Positions 5,137 to 56,663 of a stretch of 64,000 nt of DNA are shown piece after piece. Location: the NCBI GenBank assembly GCA_018609055.1, contig JABAYJ010000003.1:25457-89456 (forward strand), written 5' to 3'. The stretch comes from Flavobacteriales bacterium (lineage in GTDB: Bacteria; Bacteroidota; Bacteroidia; Flavobacteriales_D; CAJJDF01). A model generated the notes under the pieces. The model was not told the DNA's origin, did no database searches, and worked only from the letters and a program-made list of their open reading frames with translations. Every line of letters begins with the position of its first letter. Position 1 is the stretch's first letter. A program made the position numbers and the translations under genes.

Positions 5137-5868
5137 ATGGCAAAAAAATACCAAGTAGATTACTATTCGTTTTTAGGATTTATTCTGTTTTCAATAATCA
5201 TTGTTTTTATCTGGAGAACCTACTATGGATATTACATTCTGTACCCTTTTACCATAATGGGAACTTGGTTTCACGAAATGGGACACGGAATTATGTCCAT
5301 TATTGTTGGTGGTAAATTTCAGTATCTCGAAATATTCGAAAATGGTTCTGGATTGGCTCATAGTAGTTATTACGATTCAGATTTTTATTTCAATAAAAAT
5401 CTAGCGTTAGCAATGGTTACTACTGCAGGTTTATTTGGCCCACCAGTGGTTGGTTCTATTCTTATTTTGATGAGCAAGAATTTTAAGAAATCAAAAATCA
5501 TACTTTACATTCTTTCTGTTTCTATGCTTATTTCGGTAGCCATTTGGGTGCGAACTACAGTAGGAGTTGTAGTAATACTTTCGTTAGGTGCGCTTTTACT
5601 TTTTATTTCCGTAAAAGCAAAGCCAATGATACATCAGTTTGTAGTACAAATAATTGGAGTAATAGCCGTAGTAAATACTTTTAGACAAATTGGTTATTTG
5701 TACATAGAAAAAGTAACTGTTGGCGGACTAGAAGAAAGTTTTTCTGATACAGGTTCTATTGCAAATAGGTTGGGAATGACTTATTACTTTTGGGGAACTC
5801 TTATTTTAATATTGAGTTTTGTGATGTTGGTTTACAGTTTGTATTTAAGGAATAAAACCAGAGTTTAA
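5137..5868 (+). CDS. Polytopic membrane protein with HExxH motif (M50-like metallopeptidase family)
   Basis: Six or more hydrophobic segments. HEMGHG motif at the end of TM2 (WFHEMGHGIMSIIVGG). Confidence 0.6.
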   Translation: MAKKYQVDYYSFLGFILFSIIIVFIWRTYYGYYILYPFTIMGTWFHEMGHGIMSIIVGGKFQYLEIFENGSGLAHSSYYDSDFYFNKNLALAMVTTAGLFGPPVVGSILILMSKNFKKSKIILYILSVSMLISVAIWVRTTVGVVVILSLGALLLFISVKAKPMIHQFVVQIIGVIAVVNTFRQIGYLYIEKVTVGGLEESFSDTGSIANRLGMTYYFWGTLILILSFVMLVYSLYLRNKTRV

Positions 5869-6545
5869 TCCTCAACATCAACAAATTTATACCCAACACC
5901 TTTCACTGTTTTGATATAATCGTCTCCTATTTTTTCTCTTAACTTTCTTATGTGAACGTCAATTGTTCTGTCACCAACAACAATGTCGTCTCCCCAAACA
6001 GAAGCGAAAATTTTCTCACGAGTAAACACATTGTCTGGTTTTGACATTAACAAAGCCAACAATTCAAATTCTTTTTTAGGTAAGGATATCTCAGTATCTC
6101 TTTGGACGACAATATACTTTTCCCTATCAATTCTCATTGTAGCAGTTTCCTCTATAAGTTGATCCTCAACAGTTCCCCTCCTAAGCAATCCTTTAATCTT
6201 ACTAAAAAGAACTTTTGGTTTAATAGGCTTAGTAATGTAGTCGTCTGCACCAGCATCAAATCCTGCAATTTGCGAATAATCTTCACTTCTGGCAGTTAAA
6301 AAAGCAATGATTGTATTGGCAAGTAATTTATTTTTTCTGATTTCACCACATGCTTCAATTCCATCCATTTCTGGCATCATAACATCCATAATAATAAGTT
6401 CGGGCAAAAACTCATTGGCTACTTCAATAGCTTTTTCCCCATTGAGAGCAGTTTTTACTTCATACCCTTCTTTAGTAAGGTTATATTCTAGTAAATCTAG
6501 AATATCCTCATCATCATCTACTAATAAAATCTTGCTTGACTTCAT
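5865..6545 (-). CDS. OmpR/PhoB-family response regulator (receiver + winged-helix DNA-binding domain)
   Basis: Receiver motifs (LLVDDDEDIL, IMDVMMPEMDG, DDYITKPIKPK). C-terminal trans_reg_C (LPKKEFELLALL...DRTIDVHIRKLREKI...GVGYKF). No histidine kinase gene is adjacent. Confidence 0.9.
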   Translation of the reverse strand: MKSSKILLVDDDEDILDLLEYNLTKEGYEVKTALNGEKAIEVANEFLPELIIMDVMMPEMDGIEACGEIRKNKLLANTIIAFLTARSEDYSQIAGFDAGADDYITKPIKPKVLFSKIKGLLRRGTVEDQLIEETATMRIDREKYIVVQRDTEISLPKKEFELLALLMSKPDNVFTREKIFASVWGDDIVVGDRTIDVHIRKLREKIGDDYIKTVKGVGYKFVDVED

Positions 6546-6633: not shown

Positions 6634-6656
6634 TTAACATTGAGTTAATATTAAAC
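6634..6656 (+). promoter_or_regulatory. Candidate response-regulator box: TTAACATT-gag-TTAATATT-aAAC (8-3-8 direct repeat, 11-bp period)
   Basis: It lies in the divergent region between the response regulator and the TonB receptor. A near-identical copy is at 12299-12321. It overlaps the expected -33 position of a TTCCTTTG -7-like box at 6660-6667. Confidence 0.45.
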
Positions 6657-6686
6657 CAATTCCTTTGTTACAAATAAAAAAAGAAA

Positions 6687-9452
6687 ATGAAAAAATTTAT
6701 ATTCTTAGCATTATTACTAGTTTCCTCTTATGGGAATGGACAGTTTAAAATTAACGGAACCGTAACAGGTAACACAGATGATTTAATTGAGCCAGTAGCC
6801 TTTGCAAATATATTAATAAAAGGAACTTCTATTGGTGCTTCTACTGATTTTGACGGAAAATTCACATTAAATATAGACAAAGGAACATATGTGTTAGTAA
6901 TCTCTTCAATAGGGCTTGATAAGCAAGAAATAACAGTACAAATAGTAGATTCTAACGTTACTGTAGCAGTAGAACTTACTTCCTCATCCACTTATATTGG
7001 AGTAGTAAATATAGTAGGTAGAGAAGTTGGAGGAACTAAAACTATGGATATCTCCGAAGTAAAAAACTCTGATGGTGTTGATGCTGTAATAGGTGAAGAA
7101 AAAATGAAAGAAACAGGAGTTTCTGATGCTGGTGGAGCTGCAAAAAAGGTAGTAGGTTTATCAGTAGTAGGTTCAGGAAATGTATATGTAAGAGGTTTAG
7201 GAGACCGATACAATTCGGCATATTTAAATGGGCTACCAATTGCATCTCCAGACCCAGACAAAAAAGTAATTCCATTGGATTTATTCCCTACAAATGTCAT
7301 AAAATCTATGACAGTGAAAAAGGCTTACATGCCAAATTTAGAAGGAGATTTTTCTGGAGGGGCAATGGATATTTCTACCAAAGTATACCCGGACGAAAAA
7401 GTGCTTAAAATTTCATTGGGAACAGGGTTAAACTCTCAATCTATTGGAAGACAAAGAATGACTTATGAAGGAGGAGGATTAGATTACCTAGGTTTTGATG
7501 ATGGAATAAGAGCTATTCCAGATGCAATTACTAATGAAGATGCTTATCGTTCTACCGAAGGGAGTAAATCCTTATTTGCTAATAATTTAAATCCAGTACA
7601 TAAGTCTACTTTACCAAATACAAGTTTTGGTTTATTTGCGGGTAATGTATTTGAATTAGATAACGATAAAAACTCTAAAGTTGGTTTTTTGGTTTCATTA
7701 AACCACTCTAACAGCAATGAATATGCATTTGGAAAATATAGAGTAATCAATACACAAGAAGATATACAAATTGATTATGACTTTGAAGATTACACTACTT
7801 CTACTTCTACTTCTGCATTAGCAAACATTGGTTTTGATATTGATGAAAACAACCTTATTTCTTATAATTTTTTGTATGTAAATACCTCTAGCGATCAAGT
7901 AAAAGAAGTATACGGATCACACTGGGATTATGCTAGAAACGTATACGCTAGAAGATTCACTTTTAAGCAAAACAACTTAATGAATAACCAAATTACTGGT
8001 TCTCATTTCTTAATGGATAAAAACAAATTAAGAATAAACTGGTCGGCAGCACTTAACAATGCAAACAGTACTGAACCAGACAGAAGACAATTAGTCTATT
8101 TCTTTGATGATAAAGAAGATCCCGAAAACTATACGATAAATGCTACCGATAGAATTGAAAACCACCGTTTTTTCTCTTTCTTATCTGAAAGACAATTCAC
8201 TGCCAAAGCTGAAGCAACATACGTATTCAAATACAATACAGATAATGTAGAGGATGGAGCAAAATTAGCTTTTACAACAGGAGGTATGATTAAGAGAAAA
8301 ACAAGAGATTTTGATTTTACTCAATTTGTATATGACATGAATTTGTCAGATAATTCATTAGATTTTCTTAATCCAGACTCATACATTAATCCTACAACTC
8401 ACGAAGCAGGAGAGTTTAGTATACAAGAGGCCCTGAACCCTGCAAGTGCATATTTGGCAACACAAAGCATTAATTCTGTATACGGAATGTTAGATTATAA
8501 CATTACTCCTAAAATAGAAATGATTGCAGGAGCAAGAGTAGAAATGAGTGACCAAAAAATAACTTGTTTGGATCAAACTCAACCAGATTTTAAACGAATT
8601 AATCGAATTGTATCTACAGACATTTTACCGTCTTTAATATTAAAGTACCAACCTAATGACACTAATATTGTAAGATTTTCGGCAAGTAAAACAATTACAA
8701 GACCTGGATTTAAAGAAGTAGCGCCATTTCAATATACCGAAGTATTTGCAGGTGCAACTACAGTAGGAAATCCAGAATTAATAAATGGAGAAAACTACAA
8801 CTTTGATGTTAGGTACGAAAGATACCCAAGATTTGGTGAGTTTATGGCGGTAGGAGTATTCTACAAAAAACTAGTAAATCCTATTGAAAAAACAATGGAA
8901 GTTGCTACCAACCAATTACAATCTTTCCGTAATGCTGGAAATGCAACTGTAGCAGGAATAGAATTTGAATACACTAGTTCACTTTCTTTCTTAACTAAAT
9001 CAGATTCTTCGTTTCTTAGGTTTGTTTCTTTAGGAGTTAACGGAACCTATTTATACTCTAAAGTAACTTTTGACCCAGAAGCTAACTTAGCTCAAACAAA
9101 TAGCGAAAGAGCTTTACAAGGAGCTTCTCCATACTTAATTAATCTTGATTTAGCTTACTCTAGAACATTGAAAGAAAACTTAAAAGTAAACTTTAGTATC
9201 TCTTATAATGTATTTGGAAGAAGGATTTATAACGTAGGAATTTATGGCCTTGGTGATGTTTACGAATTACCTGTAAACTCACTTAATTTAGTTGCTGGTG
9301 TAGAACTAGAACACTTTAATTTTGGATTTAGAGTAAACAACTTACTAAATCAAGACATCCGATTTGAGCAAGAAACTCCAAATGAGCCAATCATCATTAA
9401 CTCTGCAAGAAGAGGGGTATTTACATCATTAAGTGTTGGATACAAATTTTAA
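6687..9452 (+). CDS. TonB-dependent outer-membrane receptor with N-terminal carboxypeptidase-regulatory-like domain
   Basis: Signal peptide. CarboxypepD_reg-like start (FKINGTVTG...ANILIKGTSIGASTDFDGKFTL). Plug region (VYVRGLGDRYNSAYLNGLPIASPDP). C-terminal beta-barrel ending in aromatic F (SVGYKF). Confidence 0.9.
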   Translation: MKKFIFLALLLVSSYGNGQFKINGTVTGNTDDLIEPVAFANILIKGTSIGASTDFDGKFTLNIDKGTYVLVISSIGLDKQEITVQIVDSNVTVAVELTSSSTYIGVVNIVGREVGGTKTMDISEVKNSDGVDAVIGEEKMKETGVSDAGGAAKKVVGLSVVGSGNVYVRGLGDRYNSAYLNGLPIASPDPDKKVIPLDLFPTNVIKSMTVKKAYMPNLEGDFSGGAMDISTKVYPDEKVLKISLGTGLNSQSIGRQRMTYEGGGLDYLGFDDGIRAIPDAITNEDAYRSTEGSKSLFANNLNPVHKSTLPNTSFGLFAGNVFELDNDKNSKVGFLVSLNHSNSNEYAFGKYRVINTQEDIQIDYDFEDYTTSTSTSALANIGFDIDENNLISYNFLYVNTSSDQVKEVYGSHWDYARNVYARRFTFKQNNLMNNQITGSHFLMDKNKLRINWSAALNNANSTEPDRRQLVYFFDDKEDPENYTINATDRIENHRFFSFLSERQFTAKAEATYVFKYNTDNVEDGAKLAFTTGGMIKRKTRDFDFTQFVYDMNLSDNSLDFLNPDSYINPTTHEAGEFSIQEALNPASAYLATQSINSVYGMLDYNITPKIEMIAGARVEMSDQKITCLDQTQPDFKRINRIVSTDILPSLILKYQPNDTNIVRFSASKTITRPGFKEVAPFQYTEVFAGATTVGNPELINGENYNFDVRYERYPRFGEFMAVGVFYKKLVNPIEKTMEVATNQLQSFRNAGNATVAGIEFEYTSSLSFLTKSDSSFLRFVSLGVNGTYLYSKVTFDPEANLAQTNSERALQGASPYLINLDLAYSRTLKENLKVNFSISYNVFGRRIYNVGIYGLGDVYELPVNSLNLVAGVELEHFNFGFRVNNLLNQDIRFEQETPNEPIIINSARRGVFTSLSVGYKF

Positions 9453-9477: not shown

Positions 9478-9509
9478 GGCATTCTTACTTTGGTAAGGAT
9501 GCCTTTTTT
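9478..9509 (+). terminator. Rho-independent terminator
   Basis: GGCATTCTTAC / GTAAGGATGCC stem (one G-U pair) with a 4-nt loop, then TTTTTT. Confidence 0.7.
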
Positions 9510-9618
9510 AATTTAATGTTAACTCCTAAGGTCATATTCTTAAAATATCCTTAACGCAGTAAATATATTCAAGTAAGATTCATTGTTGATTTTTGTATCA
9601 AATAAAAAAACAAAAAAA

Positions 9619-10923
9619 ATGAACACAACAATCAAAAATTTTGGAATGCTGATTTTAACAGCAGGTCTGCTAACAACAACTGCCTGTAAAAAAGAAACTG
9701 GCTGTACTGATCCTAATGCAAGAAACTATAACCCTGATGCGGTTGAAGATGATAACAGTTGTGAAACTGTTCCTTACACAGTTACTACAACTGATATTAA
9801 TGGAGTTTCTTACGAAAGAGTTTCTGGAACATTTGATGAAAACTATACATTTACTAGCAGTAAAAAATGGTTATTGAGTGGAGGTATTTTTGTTGATGCA
9901 AACGCTACATTAACAATACAAGCTGGAACAGAAATATATGCAGCTGATGATCAAACTACTCCGTTTTTATCCATATTAAGAGGAGGAAAAATTAATGCAG
10001 TAGGAACAGCAACTAGCCCTATTGTAATGACTACAATTAAATCTGTTACTGGAACACCAGCTGCAGGTGATTGGGGAGGAATTATAATCAATGGGAATGC
10101 ACAAATAAATAACGGAACTGAAGCTGAAGGAGAAGGAGGAACTGGAAAATATGGTGGTTCTAATGATAACGATAACTCAGGTACTATAAAATATGTGAGA
10201 GTTGAATACGCAGGAAAGTTATTAGGAACAGACAATGAGCTAAACGGATTTTCTTTTAATGGAGTAGGAAGCGGAACAACTGTCGAATATATTCAGGCAT
10301 ACAGAGGTGCAGATGACGGAATCGAATTTTTTGGAGGAACAGTATCGGTAAAATATGCAGTGTCTACAGGAAATAAAGATGACTCATTTGATTGGACATA
10401 CGGATGGAGAGGAAACGGACAGTTTTGGGTTGTAAACCAAGAAGTTGGAGGTGGAGACAGAGGAATTGAAGCAGATAACAATGGAAACGATAATACGTTA
10501 TCTCCTTATTCTAACCCTACTATTACTAACGTAACTTTAATAGGAATTGACGATGGAGATGCTTCAAACACTGGAATGAGATTAAGAGAAGGAACAAAAG
10601 GAACAATCCATAATGCAATTGTTACAGGTTTTCCAAGTTCAGGAGTAAGAGTTTCTGATGCACAAACTACGACTAACATGACAAACGGTGAGTTGGCACT
10701 AAAAAACTCAAATGTGTTCACAAACGGAACTAACTTTAGAGATTGTGCAACTTTCTCTGGAGATATGACTAATTCAACTACAATTTTAACCTTAACGGGG
10801 TATGTTGGAACATCAACTACAAATGCAGCTGACCCAACTACTTTAGGTTCTTGGTTTTCTCCTGGAACATTTGTTGGGGCGGTAGAATCAACTAATGATT
10901 GGACTGCAGGATGGACTAAATAA
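9619..10923 (+). CDS. Surface lipoprotein of unknown function (Gly/Asn/Thr-rich, beta-helix-like repeats)
   Basis: ATG at 9619 gives MNTTIKNFGMLILTAGLLTTTACKK (lipobox). Short Cys-bounded motif CTDPNARNYNPDAVEDDNSC. Repetitive G-x-G/N-rich strands (DDGIEFFGGTVSV, DDSFDWTYGW, GIEADNNGNDN). Confidence 0.7.
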   Translation: MNTTIKNFGMLILTAGLLTTTACKKETGCTDPNARNYNPDAVEDDNSCETVPYTVTTTDINGVSYERVSGTFDENYTFTSSKKWLLSGGIFVDANATLTIQAGTEIYAADDQTTPFLSILRGGKINAVGTATSPIVMTTIKSVTGTPAAGDWGGIIINGNAQINNGTEAEGEGGTGKYGGSNDNDNSGTIKYVRVEYAGKLLGTDNELNGFSFNGVGSGTTVEYIQAYRGADDGIEFFGGTVSVKYAVSTGNKDDSFDWTYGWRGNGQFWVVNQEVGGGDRGIEADNNGNDNTLSPYSNPTITNVTLIGIDDGDASNTGMRLREGTKGTIHNAIVTGFPSSGVRVSDAQTTTNMTNGELALKNSNVFTNGTNFRDCATFSGDMTNSTTILTLTGYVGTSTTNAADPTTLGSWFSPGTFVGAVESTNDWTAGWTK

Positions 10924-10997: not shown

Positions 10998-12206
10998 TTA
11001 GAAATGCAAATCTACTTGCATTCTATAAAATAATTTATCGTCTTTATTAAGTACATCTCTATAGCTTAAGTCAGCTTGAAATTTAAGCTTATGTCCTACC
11101 ACATATTTAGATAATCCAATAGTATACTCGTTTTCTTTGTTAGATGAAGTTGGCGACATGTAAGTAAATCGTGCAGAAGGTTCCCAGTTATTTTTTAGTA
11201 AATAACCAGCCTGTAAATTTACTGCTTGGCCTGTATAGTAAGCGCCAACCTGATTGTTATTTACATCAAAAACTCTGTTGTTTCCACCTCCTACTTCTCT
11301 AAGTGCATACTCGCCCATTAATGAGAAACTTCTGTATTTAAACATGAAGTCAGCAAAAAAGGTGTTTAATGTTTTAAGTTGAGTTGGAGCCACTTCAAGG
11401 AAATTTCCTAACTGCCCTCTATCTCTACCTGCTCTGTCGTTTATATCGTAAGCAAATCCAAATCCAAGTTTTGGTTTCTTCTCTCTTTTTAAGTCTCCTC
11501 CTTTGTAATCTCCTCCAGATTTAAACTTACCAAACGGCAACATTTCTAATCTAAAAGTATAGTCGTATCCACCAATGTTTCCACTAGTAATGTTTCTTCC
11601 TTCTCCTTGCGAAAAAGAAAAGATCTGCTCCATATAAAATTGTTTTCCAAACTTAGATTTATGTCTTAATTGGATTCCCATATCACGGTCAATGTTAAAC
11701 CTGCTATTCAATCTGCTTCGGTCTACCATTTGCATATTTGCAGACGAAACTACACGCTCTCTATTACCAGGAAGTTTAGTCTGTCCAGCCCACAACCAAA
11801 AATTTTTGGAGAAATTCCATTTAACTACAGCATCCAACATCAATCGAGATGCATTGCTATATTGTGGTAAATCACCACCACTCATATCTCTATTTGTGAG
11901 AGCTAGCTCTATTTTATATTGAACTTTAGGATTAAAAGCATATCCTTTAAATTTTAAACGAGATCTTCTCAATAAAAAATTAGAAGTGTGGTTGGATACA
12001 TTTCCAAAGTCATCTCCTACAACATCCCAGTTGTTGGTATATAAAGCTTGGAATCTCATTCCTACATTCATAGTAAATGAAGAATCTTTTGCAATAAAAT
12101 CAATTCCTTTTCCAAAACTATTAGTTTTAATCTGTGCTTGAGTCGGGTTAAATGCTGTGCATAAATAACATATAACTATAATCCCTGTCGTTTTCTTAAA
12201 ATTCAT
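10998..12206 (-). CDS. Outer-membrane porin, phosphate-selective porin O/P-like family
   Basis: Signal peptide ending AQ. MRFQALY...LLRRSRLKFKGYAF motif typical of Porin_O_P-like Bacteroidota porins. Alternating beta-strand pattern and terminal aromatic (VDLHF). Confidence 0.7.
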   Translation of the reverse strand: MNFKKTTGIIVICYLCTAFNPTQAQIKTNSFGKGIDFIAKDSSFTMNVGMRFQALYTNNWDVVGDDFGNVSNHTSNFLLRRSRLKFKGYAFNPKVQYKIELALTNRDMSGGDLPQYSNASRLMLDAVVKWNFSKNFWLWAGQTKLPGNRERVVSSANMQMVDRSRLNSRFNIDRDMGIQLRHKSKFGKQFYMEQIFSFSQGEGRNITSGNIGGYDYTFRLEMLPFGKFKSGGDYKGGDLKREKKPKLGFGFAYDINDRAGRDRGQLGNFLEVAPTQLKTLNTFFADFMFKYRSFSLMGEYALREVGGGNNRVFDVNNNQVGAYYTGQAVNLQAGYLLKNNWEPSARFTYMSPTSSNKENEYTIGLSKYVVGHKLKFQADLSYRDVLNKDDKLFYRMQVDLHF

Positions 12207-12298
12207 ATTAATAAATGGTTAATAAAAGTGTCCAAAACTAATTAAAATTAACATAGATTTTACGTTCCTTTGAGAAATGACACTTTGTTAATCTACAT

Positions 12299-12321
12299 TT
12301 AACATTAATTTAATATTGAAC
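12299..12321 (+). promoter_or_regulatory. Candidate response-regulator box: TTAACATT-aat-TTAATATT-gAAC
   Basis: Both 8-mers and the trailing AAC are identical to the box at 6634-6656. A weaker 8-3-8 copy (TTAACATA-gat-TTTACGTT) is at 12248-12266, followed by the same TTCCTTTG as at 6660. Confidence 0.45.
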
Positions 12322-12346
12322 TCCTGAAGGTTCGAAACATTACAAT

Positions 12347-12354
12347 TACTTTTG
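12347..12354 (+). promoter_or_regulatory. Bacteroidota-type -7 promoter box (TAnnTTTG)
   Basis: TACTTTTG lies 24 nt upstream of the ATG at 12378. Confidence 0.4.
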
Positions 12355-12377: not shown

Positions 12378-14540
12378 ATGAAAAATCTAACTTTATTATT
12401 TTCATTCCTATTCACATTTGGTTTCTCGCTATTAGCGCAATCATCTGACAGTATTTTTAATGATTCTTTAGTGCAAGAGTCTGCCGAAGAGTTTGTTCCG
12501 GCTGCTGATATTTTACATAATATTTTTGCTAAGGAAAAAGAAGGTTCTGCTGATATTAGCTGGCTTATTGATTATGATGCAATGCCTAAATTAGAAAGTG
12601 CAGGGTACACAATCATCATTAAGTACAACACCAAAATTGGTGCAAAAAGAGATAAGGCAGGATTCAAAAATTCTGAATGGACAAAGGTTCATGACATTCC
12701 TCTTTCTTCTACTCATTTTAAATTGAAAAACTTAGCTGGTGGAGAAAAGTATGTATATAAAGTTGGAATTGAAAAGGGGGAAGAGCAGGTTTTTTCAGGT
12801 AAAATGAAATTTGAAACTGAGCGTCCTTGGGGATTGTTTAGAGTTTTAGTTCTTATTGGTGCTTTAGGAATGTTTATCTATGGAATGAAAGTGATGAGTG
12901 AAGGTTTGCAACAAGCTGCTGGATCTAGATTAAGAAAAATGCTTTCTTCTATTACTTCTAACAGAGTGAAAGGAGTATTAACTGGATTTGGTATCACTTC
13001 AATTGTACAGTCTTCTTCTGTAACTACTGTAATGACTGTAAGTTTTGTAAATGCAGGATTATTAACTCTTATGCAATCAGCAGGAGTAATGATGGGAGCA
13101 AACATTGGAACAACAATTACTGCTTGGTTAATTAACTTATTTGGATTTAAGGTAAGTATGGCAAATTATGCCTTAGTTATTATCGCAATTGGAGCACCAT
13201 TCTTGTTTTTTGGAAAGTCAAAGTTAAAAGCTTGGGCTGCAGCAATCATTGGATTTGCCTTATTATTTATGGGGTTAGGTGAATTAAAAGGTGCAGTACC
13301 TGGACTAGATGCTGATTCTCCTTTAGTTCAGTTCTTTGCCGAATACAACACTGGAAGTTTCTTAAGTATATTAATGTTTGTAGGATTAGGAACAATTGTA
13401 ACTGTGGTGATTCAATCATCATCAGCAGCAATGGCGTTAACAATGACACTAGTAGCAGCAGGAGTTATTCCTTTTGAGGTTGCAGCAGCAATGGTATTAG
13501 GTGAAAACATAGGAACAACTATAACAGCAGAGTTAGCTTCTTTAATTGGAAACGTACACGCGAAACGTTCTGCAAGAATTCACTCCATGTTTAATTTAAT
13601 TGGAGTGTTCTGGGCAATTTTATTAATGCCTTTTTTAATTGATGGTATTGTTTGGTTCATGGAATATATTGGCGCAGGAAACCCTATTCCAGAATATGCA
13701 GCAGATGGAAGTATCATAAAGAAAGATTCTTACAATACAGGAATTGCTATCTTCCACACAACATTTAACTTAGTGAACGTATTATTATTAATTGGTTTTG
13801 TACCTCAATTGGTAAGATTAGCTGAAAGAACAGTAAAATCTAAAGGAGAAGAAGACGAAGAATTCCACTTAGAGTTTATTAGTGCAGGAATGATGTCTAC
13901 TCCAGATTTATCTATTTCTGAAGCGAAAAAAGAAATGTTGAAATTTGGTAACATAGCTCAAAAAATGAACGGATACGTTTCAAGTTTGTTAGTTGAAAAA
14001 GACAATAAAAAAATCGCTAAACTTCTTAAAAAAGTAAAAAAATATGAGGAGATAACTGATAGAATAGAATTAGAAATTGCAGATTATTTAGCAAAAGTTT
14101 CTCAAGGAGAAATGAGTAATGAGACTTCGGTTAGAATTAGAGGAATGCTAAGTATGATTGGTGATTTAGAAAGAATTGGTGACATCTATTACCAAATTTC
14201 TAAAACTATCGAATCTAAACACGAAAAGAAAGTTTGGTTCAATCCTCAGTTTAGAGATTTATTAGTTGAAATGGTAAATACCGTAGACGAAGCAATGGTA
14301 ATTATGAACGAAAACTTAGCTGCAAACTACAGTACAGTAAAAATTGATGCTGCATTGTCTAAAGAAAAAGACATTAATGATTTAAGAGATAAAATTAGAA
14401 AGAAGCACTTAACTGAAATAGGTTCTTCTGAGTACGATACGGTAACGGCAACTTTCTACAGCAACATTTTCCACTCTTTCGAAAAAGTAGGAGATCATAT
14501 AATAAATGTAACTGAAGGTCTTGTTGGAAACATGGACTAA
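12378..14540 (+). CDS. Na+/phosphate cotransporter family protein (NptA/YjbB-like, PhoU-like C-terminal repeats) with extra N-terminal secreted domain
   Basis: Core motifs are present: GMKVMSEGLQ, QSSSVTTVM, GANIGTTITAW, second repeat QSSSAAMALT and GENIGTTITA. The C-terminus is helical and PhoU-like. Residues 1-149 are a signal peptide plus a beta-rich extension. Confidence 0.88.
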   Translation: MKNLTLLFSFLFTFGFSLLAQSSDSIFNDSLVQESAEEFVPAADILHNIFAKEKEGSADISWLIDYDAMPKLESAGYTIIIKYNTKIGAKRDKAGFKNSEWTKVHDIPLSSTHFKLKNLAGGEKYVYKVGIEKGEEQVFSGKMKFETERPWGLFRVLVLIGALGMFIYGMKVMSEGLQQAAGSRLRKMLSSITSNRVKGVLTGFGITSIVQSSSVTTVMTVSFVNAGLLTLMQSAGVMMGANIGTTITAWLINLFGFKVSMANYALVIIAIGAPFLFFGKSKLKAWAAAIIGFALLFMGLGELKGAVPGLDADSPLVQFFAEYNTGSFLSILMFVGLGTIVTVVIQSSSAAMALTMTLVAAGVIPFEVAAAMVLGENIGTTITAELASLIGNVHAKRSARIHSMFNLIGVFWAILLMPFLIDGIVWFMEYIGAGNPIPEYAADGSIIKKDSYNTGIAIFHTTFNLVNVLLLIGFVPQLVRLAERTVKSKGEEDEEFHLEFISAGMMSTPDLSISEAKKEMLKFGNIAQKMNGYVSSLLVEKDNKKIAKLLKKVKKYEEITDRIELEIADYLAKVSQGEMSNETSVRIRGMLSMIGDLERIGDIYYQISKTIESKHEKKVWFNPQFRDLLVEMVNTVDEAMVIMNENLAANYSTVKIDAALSKEKDINDLRDKIRKKHLTEIGSSEYDTVTATFYSNIFHSFEKVGDHIINVTEGLVGNMD

Positions 14541-32140: not shown

Positions 32141-33139
32141 GTGAGTAAGTTAAAAGAAGAATTAAAGAAAAGAATACTAGTGCTTGATGGAGCCATGGGA
32201 ACCATGATTCAGCAATATAAGTTAGGTGAAGAAGATTTTAGAAAAGGATGGTTTGAAGGTCACGATTTCCCATTAAAAGGAAATAATGATTTGCTATCTC
32301 TAACTCGCCCTGACATTATAAAAGCAATACACGCTAAGTATTTTGAAGCGGGAGCAGATATAGTTGAAACCAATACGTTTAGTGGAACAACCATAGCTCA
32401 AGAAGATTATAACGCACAAGACAAGGTTTACGAAATCAATTATCATTCTGCTAAAATAGCAAAAGAAGTAGCTGATGAATTCACAGCAAAAGAGCCTAAT
32501 AAACCTAGGTTTGTTGCTGGCTCAATAGGGCCAACAAATAAAACTGCTTCTATTTCCCCAGTGATAAATGATCCTGGATTCAGAGCAATATCATTTGATG
32601 AATTAGTAGTCGCATTTTCTCAACAAGTGGAAGCGCTTATTGATGGCGGGGTTGATATGCTATTAGTAGAAACAATTATTGATACTTTAAATGCAAAAGC
32701 AGCTTTATTCGCAATCGAACAAGTATTCGAAAAGAAAGGAGTTGAAATTCCTATTATGGTTTCGGGAACTATTACCGACCAAAGTGGAAGAACACTTTCC
32801 GGTCAAACAACCGAAGCATTTCTTATTTCTACAGAGCATGCGCCAATTACTAGTATTGGATTAAACTGTGCTTTGGGAGCAAAAGAATTGAAACCTTATT
32901 TACAGGTTATGTCTAAAAAATCTCCTTTTTTAGTTAGTGCACACCCTAATGCAGGATTACCTAACGAATTTGGAGAATATGACGAAACACCAGAAATGAT
33001 GGCGGATCAAATAAAAGTATTCCTTGAAGAAGGACTATTAAATATTGTAGGTGGATGTTGCGGAACATCACCAGCTCACATAAAAGCTATAGCTGATTTA
33101 GCGAAAAACTACGAACCAAGAAAAATTAACCAGAACTAA
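32141..33139 (+). CDS. Homocysteine S-methyltransferase domain protein (N-terminal module of a split methionine synthase)
   Basis: [13 protein letters not shown] start. Zn-ligand cysteines are present in GLNCALG and GGCCGTSP. It corresponds to the MetH Hcy-binding module only. Confidence 0.9.
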
Positions 33140-55226: not shown

Positions 55227-56663
55227 TCACTTAGGAAACTTCATAAAAAACGAAGTCCCAATATTTACTTTACTCTCAAAGTAAATAGATCCCCCATGAT
55301 TTTTAAGGATATTTTTTACAATAGCTAATCCCAATCCACTTCCTGATGATTTAGTTGTGAAATTAGGTGTAAAGATGTTTTCATATTGTGAAGGGTCGAT
55401 TCCTTTTCCATTGTCTTTTACCTCCACAAAATAATGGCTTTCATCTTCAGTCAGTATCACTTGAATCACTCCTACTCTTCCTTCTGGGATAGATTGCGCA
55501 GAGTTTTTTAATAAATTATTAAACACTCTTATCAATTGACTATCGTCTCCTTTAATTATAGCTGTTTCAATTCCATTCAGCTCCTTAGCTACTTTTATTT
55601 CTTTGTCAAATGTTCCTACAGCATCTCTCAATATTATTCTTAAATCTACTGGAGCCAAAGAGGTTGTGGGCATTTTAGCAAAACTTGCAAACTCATTTGC
55701 AATTTCACTTAAAGCATCAATTTGCGTAATCATTTTTTGCGAAAAACGAGTCATTTTATGTTTAAACTCTGGGTCCTCTGGCTTTAGTGATTGCTCTAAA
55801 TATTGCACATTCAACTTCATAGGTGTTAAAGGATTCTTAATCTCATGAGCAACTTGTTTTGCCATTTCTCTCCAAGCAATTTCTCTTTCTGATTCTGCTA
55901 ATAAATTGGCACTTTGCTCCAATTCATCTACCATAGTATTGTACCTATGTACTAGAACTCCTATTTCATCATTGTTTTTCCAAGAAATTTTTTCATTCTT
56001 TTTATTAAATGAAACATTCTTCATTTTATCACCAATTAAACTCAATGAACGAGTAATGTTTTTAGACAAAAAGAATGCGAAAATTCCTGCTCCAATTAAT
56101 AGGGCTATATATAGCTCTATAAGAGTTTTATAAAATTTATTAGTCTCAATGCTGTTGGTAGAAAAATCATAATCTGGTACATTCAATATCCCAATATTCT
56201 CTCCTTTCCTATTTTTTAAAAAAGAATAAGTCGATAACTTATTTTGATCTTTTTTAAGAATATAAAAGGAATCTAGAGACGCGTATATCTCATTAAAAAT
56301 ATAGCTCGGTATACTGTCATCAGGATTTAATTCTTGATCTAGGCTAAGTAAAATTTCTCCATCAGTATTATAAATCTTCAGCTCCATTTCATTTTCCTTG
56401 GAGAGTTCTTCAATTTTTTCGTAAAACTCTCTAGGTACTGAGTTTAAGTCTTTCTCTATTTCATATTTATCAGTAAAAAACTTGATAGAGTTTGCCACCC
56501 TTTTTTCTTTTCTTTCTAATCTAGAAAGATGGTATTTTTCGTTTTGATTTTTGAAAAAATTTGCTGTAACTAATGCAATCACCAAGGAAGAAATTACAAC
56601 CAATGCAAGCATAGCGATATAAATTCGCTTTGATAATCCTATATTAAAAGAGGGTCTTTTCAT
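55227..56663 (-). CDS. Sensor histidine kinase (2 TM, HAMP, HisKA, HATPase_c); no cognate regulator adjacent
   Basis: H-box AHEIKNPLTPM, N-box NLLKNSAQS, and G-boxes DNGKGI / GSGLGLAI. Confidence 0.9.
   Translation of the reverse strand: MKRPSFNIGLSKRIYIAMLALVVISSLVIALVTANFFKNQNEKYHLSRLERKEKRVANSIKFFTDKYEIEKDLNSVPREFYEKIEELSKENEMELKIYNTDGEILLSLDQELNPDDSIPSYIFNEIYASLDSFYILKKDQNKLSTYSFLKNRKGENIGILNVPDYDFSTNSIETNKFYKTLIELYIALLIGAGIFAFFLSKNITRSLSLIGDKMKNVSFNKKNEKISWKNNDEIGVLVHRYNTMVDELEQSANLLAESEREIAWREMAKQVAHEIKNPLTPMKLNVQYLEQSLKPEDPEFKHKMTRFSQKMITQIDALSEIANEFASFAKMPTTSLAPVDLRIILRDAVGTFDKEIKVAKELNGIETAIIKGDDSQLIRVFNNLLKNSAQSIPEGRVGVIQVILTEDESHYFVEVKDNGKGIDPSQYENIFTPNFTTKSSGSGLGLAIVKNILKNHGGSIYFESKVNIGTSFFMKFPK

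Follow-up and report, generated by a model that had tools for sequence, protein, structure and literature searches.

A tandem TTAAYATT repeat upstream of phosphate-acquisition genes is a probable Pho box of Bacteroidota

A direct repeat that occurs twice in a 64-kb stretch of DNA (the window, by which we mean the whole stretch analysed) from an uncultured Flavobacteriales bacterium near Crocinitomicaceae is almost certainly a functional cis-regulatory site. Comparison with related and independent loci indicates that this site is probably a Pho box, bound by phosphorylated PhoB (PhoB~P) in this bacterium and in Bacteroidota generally. The element has an 8-3-8 form, TTAAYATT-n3-TTAAYATT, in which the starts of the two 8-mers lie 11 bp apart, a period of one helical turn. 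It stands in front of genes for phosphate acquisition, is conserved where its surroundings are not, and keeps a helical phase to the -7 element of the promoter.

Bacteroidota are major phosphorus recyclers of the ocean, of soils and of the rhizosphere, and the definition of their phosphate-starvation regulon to date comes from expression work on a small number of Flavobacterium strains. We found no published Pho box or consensus for the phylum in the open literature, and a prior description in subscription journals or in regulon databases such as RegPrecise is possible. If validated, a box with a defined promoter geometry would let the Pho regulon of uncultured lineages be predicted from their genomes or metagenome-assembled genomes, would flag phosphate-controlled TonB-dependent receptors and beta-helix lipoproteins that lack a substrate assignment, and would offer a starting point for studying how OmpR/PhoB-type activators act at the unusual -33/-7 promoters. 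Elements of this kind are well known, and in sequence the box comes near to the cyanobacterial one and to that of Bacillus; we therefore consider it useful rather than surprising.

A repeated box in the 64-kb window

The gene cluster that holds both copies encodes an OmpR/PhoB-family response regulator (5865-6545, - strand; Pfam Response_reg and Trans_reg_C), a TonB-dependent receptor that is likely Pho-regulated (6687-9452, +; CarbopepD_reg_2 and Plug), a beta-helix protein (9583-10923, +), a phosphate-selective porin of the Porin_O_P family (10998-12206, -; PF07396, 6.2e-11) and a Na/Pi cotransporter with C-terminal PhoU domains (12378-14540, +; Na_Pi_cotrans 2.4e-58, PhoU 4.7e-15) that also scores above the cutoff of NCBIfam TIGR00704. 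The window copy of the beta-helix protein has no Pfam match, its orthologues carry PF28492 (Beta_helix_4), and its gene is probably in the same operon as the upstream receptor gene. The cotransporter begins with an extension of ~150 aa (12378-12830, +) with a signal-peptide-like start, which is kept in Crocinitomicaceae-like relatives and missing in distant homologues, whose matches begin near residue 150.

One copy, TTAACATT-AAT-TTAATATT-GAAC at 12299-12321 (+), lies between the porin and cotransporter genes, and the other, TTAACATT-GAG-TTAATATT-AAAC at 6634-6656 (+), between the response-regulator and receptor genes. The earlier note on this DNA had claimed a match of 20 in 23 positions that includes the whole of both 8-mers and the final AAC, and the sequence bears this out. 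We refer to the paired 8-bp direct repeats of the first (TTAACATT-aat-TTAATATT, 12299-12317, +) as the core box of the cotransporter promoter and to those of the second (TTAACATT-gag-TTAATATT, 6634-6652, +) as the reference box. Upstream of the core box are two weaker units, ATGACACT (12277-12284, +) and TTAATCTA (12288-12295, +), which are in register with it at 11-bp steps and complete a four-unit array at 12277-12317; the matrix match shifted to 12288 scores 14.8 bits.

The window has a GC content of 34% and the motif is AT-rich, which raises the alternative that the box is a chance likeness of AT-rich intergenic DNA, or else a small dispersed repeat or mobile-element remnant. This alternative gains something from loose matches, since the pattern with up to three mismatches occurs 14 times in the window against 7.6 expected, about twofold, but it fares poorly on exact ones, as the 16 specified bases are found twice on the two strands of the 64 kb where base composition predicts 0.0012 copies. 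With a scoring matrix built from orthologous sites, the 6634 site reaches 22.9 bits and the 12299 site 22.2 bits, and they are the only sites in the window to exceed the null maximum (mean 13.4 bits, highest 21.2, in 30 simulations). Weak box-like matches at 9504-9522 (-; 10.7 bits) and 9540-9558 (+; 8.0 bits), in the 130 bp that separate the receptor gene from the beta-helix gene, both fall below the null maximum.

Other elements near the box were also considered. An inverted repeat, GAAC-n8-GTTC, directly follows the main box (12318-12333, +), and as a candidate operator it was rejected, being kept in no relative and probably fortuitous. A search of the window with Rfam gave no RNA element near either site; its sole match was a SAM riboswitch elsewhere (RF00162, 31961-32069, +; 87.7 bits, E 1.8e-19), upstream of the open reading frame at 32141-33139.

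Conservation of the box across relatives

For conservation we scanned the neighbourhoods of cotransporter homologues in Flavobacteriales, Cytophagales and Saprospiraceae (80 species-level loci), allowing at most two mismatches to TTAAYATT-N3-TTAAYATT. In 55 of the 80 species, the 400 bp upstream of the cotransporter gene contain a box, which is on the coding strand in 51 of them, while 25 loci are without one at this two-mismatch threshold. Over the 1.40 Mb scanned, 71 of 120 coding-strand matches fall within 300 bp upstream of the gene, a region that makes up 1.7% of the sequence, and all 66 matches with at most one mismatch lie outside same-strand open reading frames of 100 aa or more. When 60 composition-matched permuted units were run on the same upstream regions, they gave a mean of 0.95 matches and a maximum of 5, compared to 60 for the real pattern. 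Analyses that presuppose less of the motif agree with it: pattern-free 6-mer enrichment is headed by CTTAAC (10x), TAACAT (7.9x) and TTAACA (7.5x), and an unbiased analysis of TTAAYA spacing gives a sharp peak at 11 bp (36 pairs).

Both intergenic regions were also aligned across close relatives (loci L003 and L081-L085 in our labelling; cotransporter identity 69-86%). In the spacer between porin and cotransporter genes, the core box shows little or no variation in seven relatives while the flanks vary (mean column identity 69%), and the weaker units at 12277-12284 and 12288-12295 are kept as TTGACACT and TTAATnTA. In the spacer between regulator and receptor genes, both 8-mers are kept in four of four relatives, the one exception being a single base in L003, within the first unit. 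The check that the earlier note had proposed, conservation of the box in orthologous intergenic regions, thus comes out in its favour both among the close relatives, where the box is invariant, and across the wider set of species, and its claim that the receptor promoter and the porin/cotransporter spacer have a real cis-regulatory element in common is supported. For the alternative of chance or a dispersed repeat the same data are adverse, as the box holds while its flanks diverge, no flanking repeat structure is seen, and across families and orders the box keeps its place, its strand and its helical phase to the -7 element. The exact-copy expectation, the matrix null simulations and the permuted-unit controls together rule out chance and AT-richness, and we regard that whole alternative, mobile-element remnants included, as extremely improbable.

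Genes that carry the box

Besides the cotransporter gene, strong boxes are found upstream of genes for phosphate-selective porins, TonB-dependent receptors and a PstS-type phosphate-binding protein and upstream of the response-regulator gene or operon. As expected of a Pho box, phosphate-acquisition genes and phoB(R) itself are among the targets, which comprise the Na/Pi cotransporter, Porin_O_P, PstS, phoB(R) and the receptor cluster. The association with pstS was seen in an independent set of 80 metagenome loci around PstS homologues, in which 42 forward boxes occur in 19.9 kb of upstream sequence and 20, counted on both strands, in the ~370 kb elsewhere. These pstS boxes come from 23 of 68 loci, mostly low-GC, Bacteroidota-like ones.

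A similar set of genes is known from Flavobacterium johnsoniae, where the 'PhoBR operon' or PUSIV cluster (Fjoh_0541-0549) encodes OprP, PhoR, PhoB, a TonB-dependent transporter and a pectin-lyase-fold lipoprotein (PMC8115612). Upon Pi depletion the transporter shows a log2FC of 8 and the pectin-lyase-fold 'FII' lipoprotein Fjoh_0546 one of 9.9, with transporter and lipoproteins spanning 7.6-9.9, and the OprP porin of the cluster has a log2FC of -1.3 that is not significant (PMC8115612). That study reports expression and no cis element, the terms 'Pho box', 'motif' and 'promoter' being absent from its text (PMC8115612). The transporter gene is a neighbour of phoB there, and the beta-helix protein of the window is similar to Fjoh_0546. 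Induction of this equivalent cluster upon Pi depletion is indirect support for control of the box by PhoB~P under Pi limitation. The window shares with this cluster its content of PhoB, TonB-dependent transporter, pectin-lyase-fold or beta-helix protein and porin, and differs from it in two respects: PhoR adjoins PhoB in F. johnsoniae and not in the window, and the window adds a Na/Pi cotransporter to the neighbourhood.

Position of the box relative to the promoter

Promoters of Bacteroidota, as known from work on Bacteroides and F. johnsoniae, consist of a -7 box, TAnnTTTG, and a -33 element, TTTG. The -7 box of the cotransporter gene, TACTTTTG (12347-12354, +), begins 29 bp downstream of the box end, and its position is invariant in the alignment of relatives. 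Of 62 cotransporter sites compared under the strict TAnnTTTG pattern, 23 have a gap of 29 bp from the box end and 5 one of 30 bp (28/62), which makes 29 bp the modal geometry across dozens of lineages, with minor classes at 18 and 7 bp, and TTTG is not enriched at these 62 sites where a -33 element would be expected. A gap that equals 7 modulo 11 was found for 41 of 64 pairs of box and TAnnTTTG in the cotransporter loci and for 11 of 18 in the pstS loci, giving a helically phased series of 7, 18, 29 and 40 bp. A further class of reversed -7 boxes at 27 bp was discarded as an artefact of the quasi-palindromic TTAATATTAA, which also reads on the other strand when shifted by 2 nt.

The receptor promoter falls into the same series. 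Its probable -7 box, TTCCTTTG (6660-6667, +), has the non-canonical form TTnnTTTG and follows the reference box after 7 bp, and the TCCTTTG within it is invariant in four of four relatives; in the receptor promoter of one locus (L042), the box is followed after an 18-bp gap by TTTCTTTG, again a TTnnTTTG-like element. The earlier note had taken the differing distances to the -7 box as a sign that the mode of action may differ between the two promoters. This suggestion is weakened by the phasing, since 7 and 29 bp differ by exactly two turns, which places both boxes on the same face of the helix. The box thus occupies a fixed position relative to a core promoter that is without a -33 element, where we infer the transcription starts from the matches to the -7 box, and most likely PhoB~P takes over the recruitment of RNA polymerase from the missing element.

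The weaker box at the porin promoter

A weaker 8-3-8 unit reported in the earlier note, TTAACATA-gat-TTTACGTT (12248-12266, +), lies closer to the porin gene and points away from it. At 5.4 bits it is not significant by sequence alone, and we accept it because conservation and geometry back it. All six relatives that contain the porin also have the weak box, and L085, which is without the porin, is without the box too. The weak box begins exactly 7 nt after the reversed -7 box of the porin gene (TAGTTTTG, 12233-12240, -; CAAAACTA on the plus strand), both in the clade of the window and in three distant loci (L022, L023 and L049). The -7 box itself is kept in porin-containing relatives as CAAAAnTA on the plus strand. 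The earlier note had left it open whether the sites of this divergent spacer serve the porin, the cotransporter or both, and the geometry divides them: the strong array goes with the cotransporter gene, at the modal gap of 29 bp, and the weak box with the porin gene, at 7 nt.

The same note had pointed to an octamer, TTCCTTTG, that follows both the weak box and the reference box. This likeness did not hold up. At 12265-12272 the octamer overlaps the last two bases of the weak unit, at 6660-6667 it sits 7 nt after the box, and the two strands of the window together have nine copies of it; we rejected the idea that it is another -7 element next to the weak box. Since it is not conserved there in L084 or L003 and the spacing is different, the shared octamer is probably a coincidence.

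The weak box would be a PhoB site that acts on the porin promoter, separate from the main array, inverted and placed over the porin -33 region, where it could modulate the porin gene with either sign. One refinement would make the main box an activating site and the inverted porin box a repressor site, at which PhoB~P or unphosphorylated PhoB occludes the -33 region, and would put porin and cotransporter under opposite regulation while leaving the Pho-box explanation in place rather than replacing it. The exact 7-nt distance from the porin -7 box in several distant lineages is consistent with occlusion, as are the orientation, which is the inverse of that at the receptor promoter despite the equal 7-bp gap, and the OprP gene of F. 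johnsoniae, which is not induced upon Pi depletion (PMC8115612). Porins without a shared divergent spacer, however, carry forward boxes at -65 to -127, as activated genes do. Salmonella PhoP, too, can reportedly activate from boxes of either orientation (Zwir and colleagues, 2012). On balance we see repression at the porin promoter as possible but rather unlikely.

In the divergent porin/cotransporter spacers of three other loci (L027:9811-9931, L048:3617-3737 and L053:9804-9924), two boxes are set face to face, and for each gene the nearer box is directed away from it, which bears on how far orientation matters.

Comparison with known Pho boxes

Among known systems, the box is close to the SphR box of Synechocystis sp. 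PCC 6803, which has at least three tandem 8-bp repeats with the consensus CTTAACCT and 3-bp linkers (PMC1906773). Like it, the Bacteroidota box joins 8-bp units by 3-bp linkers with an 11-bp period, has a (C)TTAAC core, forms arrays of at least three units, lies upstream of pst and other phosphate-acquisition genes and goes with a PhoB-family winged-helix regulator. The 3' half of the unit differs, being ATT here and CCT in Synechocystis, which belongs to a different phylum. Unlike the cyanobacterial box, the Bacteroidota box is phased at 7, 18, 29 or 40 bp upstream of a -7 TAnnTTTG, and it has two strong units while the others are weak.

The PhoP box of Bacillus subtilis, established in work from the Hulett lab, consists of direct repeats of TT(A/T/C)ACA with ~5-bp spacers, four of which make up the core, and we take the Bacteroidota unit to be essentially a TTAACA-N5 repeat of this kind. 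Both would then have a TTAACA-type hexamer every 11 bp, and the four-unit array of the cotransporter promoter resembles the core site for two dimers. They differ in that conservation extends over 8 bp (TTAAYATT) in Bacteroidota and in the sigma factor and promoter elements.

The Pho box of Escherichia coli has two direct repeat units of 11 bp, each an 8-bp CTGTCATA-type sequence with an A/T-rich 3-bp linker, and lies 10 bp upstream of the -10 element (PMC1906773, PMC4415409). Direct repeats, the 11-bp period and the replacement of the upstream promoter hexamer are common to both, and the 7-bp gap of the receptor promoter sets its box over the -33 region, whereas most Bacteroidota boxes are more distant than in E. 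coli by one to three helical turns and some are inverted. The enterobacterial consensus CTGTCATA(A/T)A(T/A)CTGTCA is not matched by the Bacteroidota unit. As TTAAYATT is unrelated to CTGTCATA, the box is not of the E. coli type in sequence and is SphR-like instead.

The regulator and a proposed mechanism

The response regulator encoded at 5865-6545 pairs a receiver domain with a winged-helix domain (Trans_reg_C) whose recognition helix is PhoB-like. Its two best NCBIfam families are both PhoB models (TIGR02154 and NF053854), and it misses the equivalog cutoffs of both (210.7 vs 296.2 bits and 201.1 vs 270). Among solved full-length structures, that of the mycobacterial phosphate regulator RegX3 is nearest to it, and the nearest to its DNA-binding domain are the effector domain of E. 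coli PhoB (1gxp, 5.6e-16; 1qqi, about 5e-16) and RegX3. The recognition helix, DRTIDVHIRKLR, is nearly identical to that of PhoB, DRTVDVHIRRLR. One Arg-to-Lys change falls at what is presumably Arg201, a residue that contacts a base in the structure of PhoB on DNA, and a change at this position would fit an altered specificity.

No kinase gene adjoins the regulator gene, and no PhoR-type kinase is present within the 64-kb window; the only kinase-like H-box (HEIKNPLT), in the open reading frame at 55227-56663 (-), is NtrB-like and was dismissed as a PhoR candidate. At 10 other loci an orthologue of the regulator (55-66% identity) is followed by a kinase of ~340 aa whose top matches are PnpS and PhoR, below the cutoffs of these two models. 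In two of the regulator-kinase operons (L040 and L042), TACCTTTG or TACATTTG is preceded at 18 bp by a forward box, which indicates autoregulation.

With scores below the PhoB cutoffs and no PhoR nearby, the regulator may be a paralogue, with the true PhoB encoded elsewhere, and the box could instead belong to a different OmpR-family regulator or another factor that responds to a signal other than phosphate, such as envelope stress or another nutrient. The architecture of the box is not specific to PhoB, as OmpR-family proteins generally bind direct repeats spaced at 11 bp, and the lack of Pi induction of OprP in F. johnsoniae (PMC8115612) is in keeping with a non-phosphate signal. Against this stand the targets, which are canonical phosphate genes (pstS, the Na/Pi symporter with PhoU, phosphate-selective porins), as well as the family matches, the partner kinases at other loci and the relatives of the DNA-binding domain, all of which indicate a Pho system, and the likeness of the unit to the SphR Pho box (PMC1906773). 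The resemblance to the PhoP box of Bacillus points the same way. We therefore judge a regulator of a different signal improbable, and the protein that binds the box is most likely the regulator encoded at 5865-6545.

In the mechanism that we propose, the Pho box would be made up of tandem 8-bp units with the consensus TTAAYATT, often preceded by C and 11 bp apart, and each unit would hold one winged-helix domain of the phosphorylated PhoB-type regulator, the domains being arranged head to tail. Under Pi limitation, PhoB~P would occupy the array along a single helical face, in fixed phase upstream of the -7 element, with the end of the array 7, 18, 29 or 40 bp before TAnnTTTG. This would switch on the Na/Pi cotransporter gene through four units and a 29-bp gap and the receptor/beta-helix operon through two units and a 7-bp gap, and the receptor site may feed back on the divergent regulator gene. 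A simple model of activation by sigma contact meets a counter-point in that box orientation is not uniform, some promoter-proximal boxes facing away from the nearest gene. A more far-reaching version would see in these features a phylum-wide code, in which TTAAYATT units phased strictly at 7, 18, 29 or 40 bp and lacking a -33 element let PhoB work with the unusual primary sigma factor of Bacteroidota from several discrete positions of equal helical phase and in both orientations, the conserved inverted site next to the porin -7 box gives opposite or bidirectional control of the divergent porin and transporter genes, and the regulator is, in this lineage, split from its kinase; as a whole, we put this version forward tentatively and consider it doubtful.

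Further sites

A metagenome contig of 61% GC that is not Bacteroidota-like (L123:2890-2930) carries TTAACCTTTTCTTAACATT 45 bp upstream of pstS, a site whose sequence suggests that TTAAC-type Pho boxes may reach well beyond Bacteroidota. In three loci a strong box lies directly 3' of the cotransporter gene (L040:11743-11761, L042:11738-11756 and L039:11737), where it precedes the gene for a small (~105 aa) secreted protein with a CarbopepD_reg_2 domain, a possible further Pho-regulated gene.
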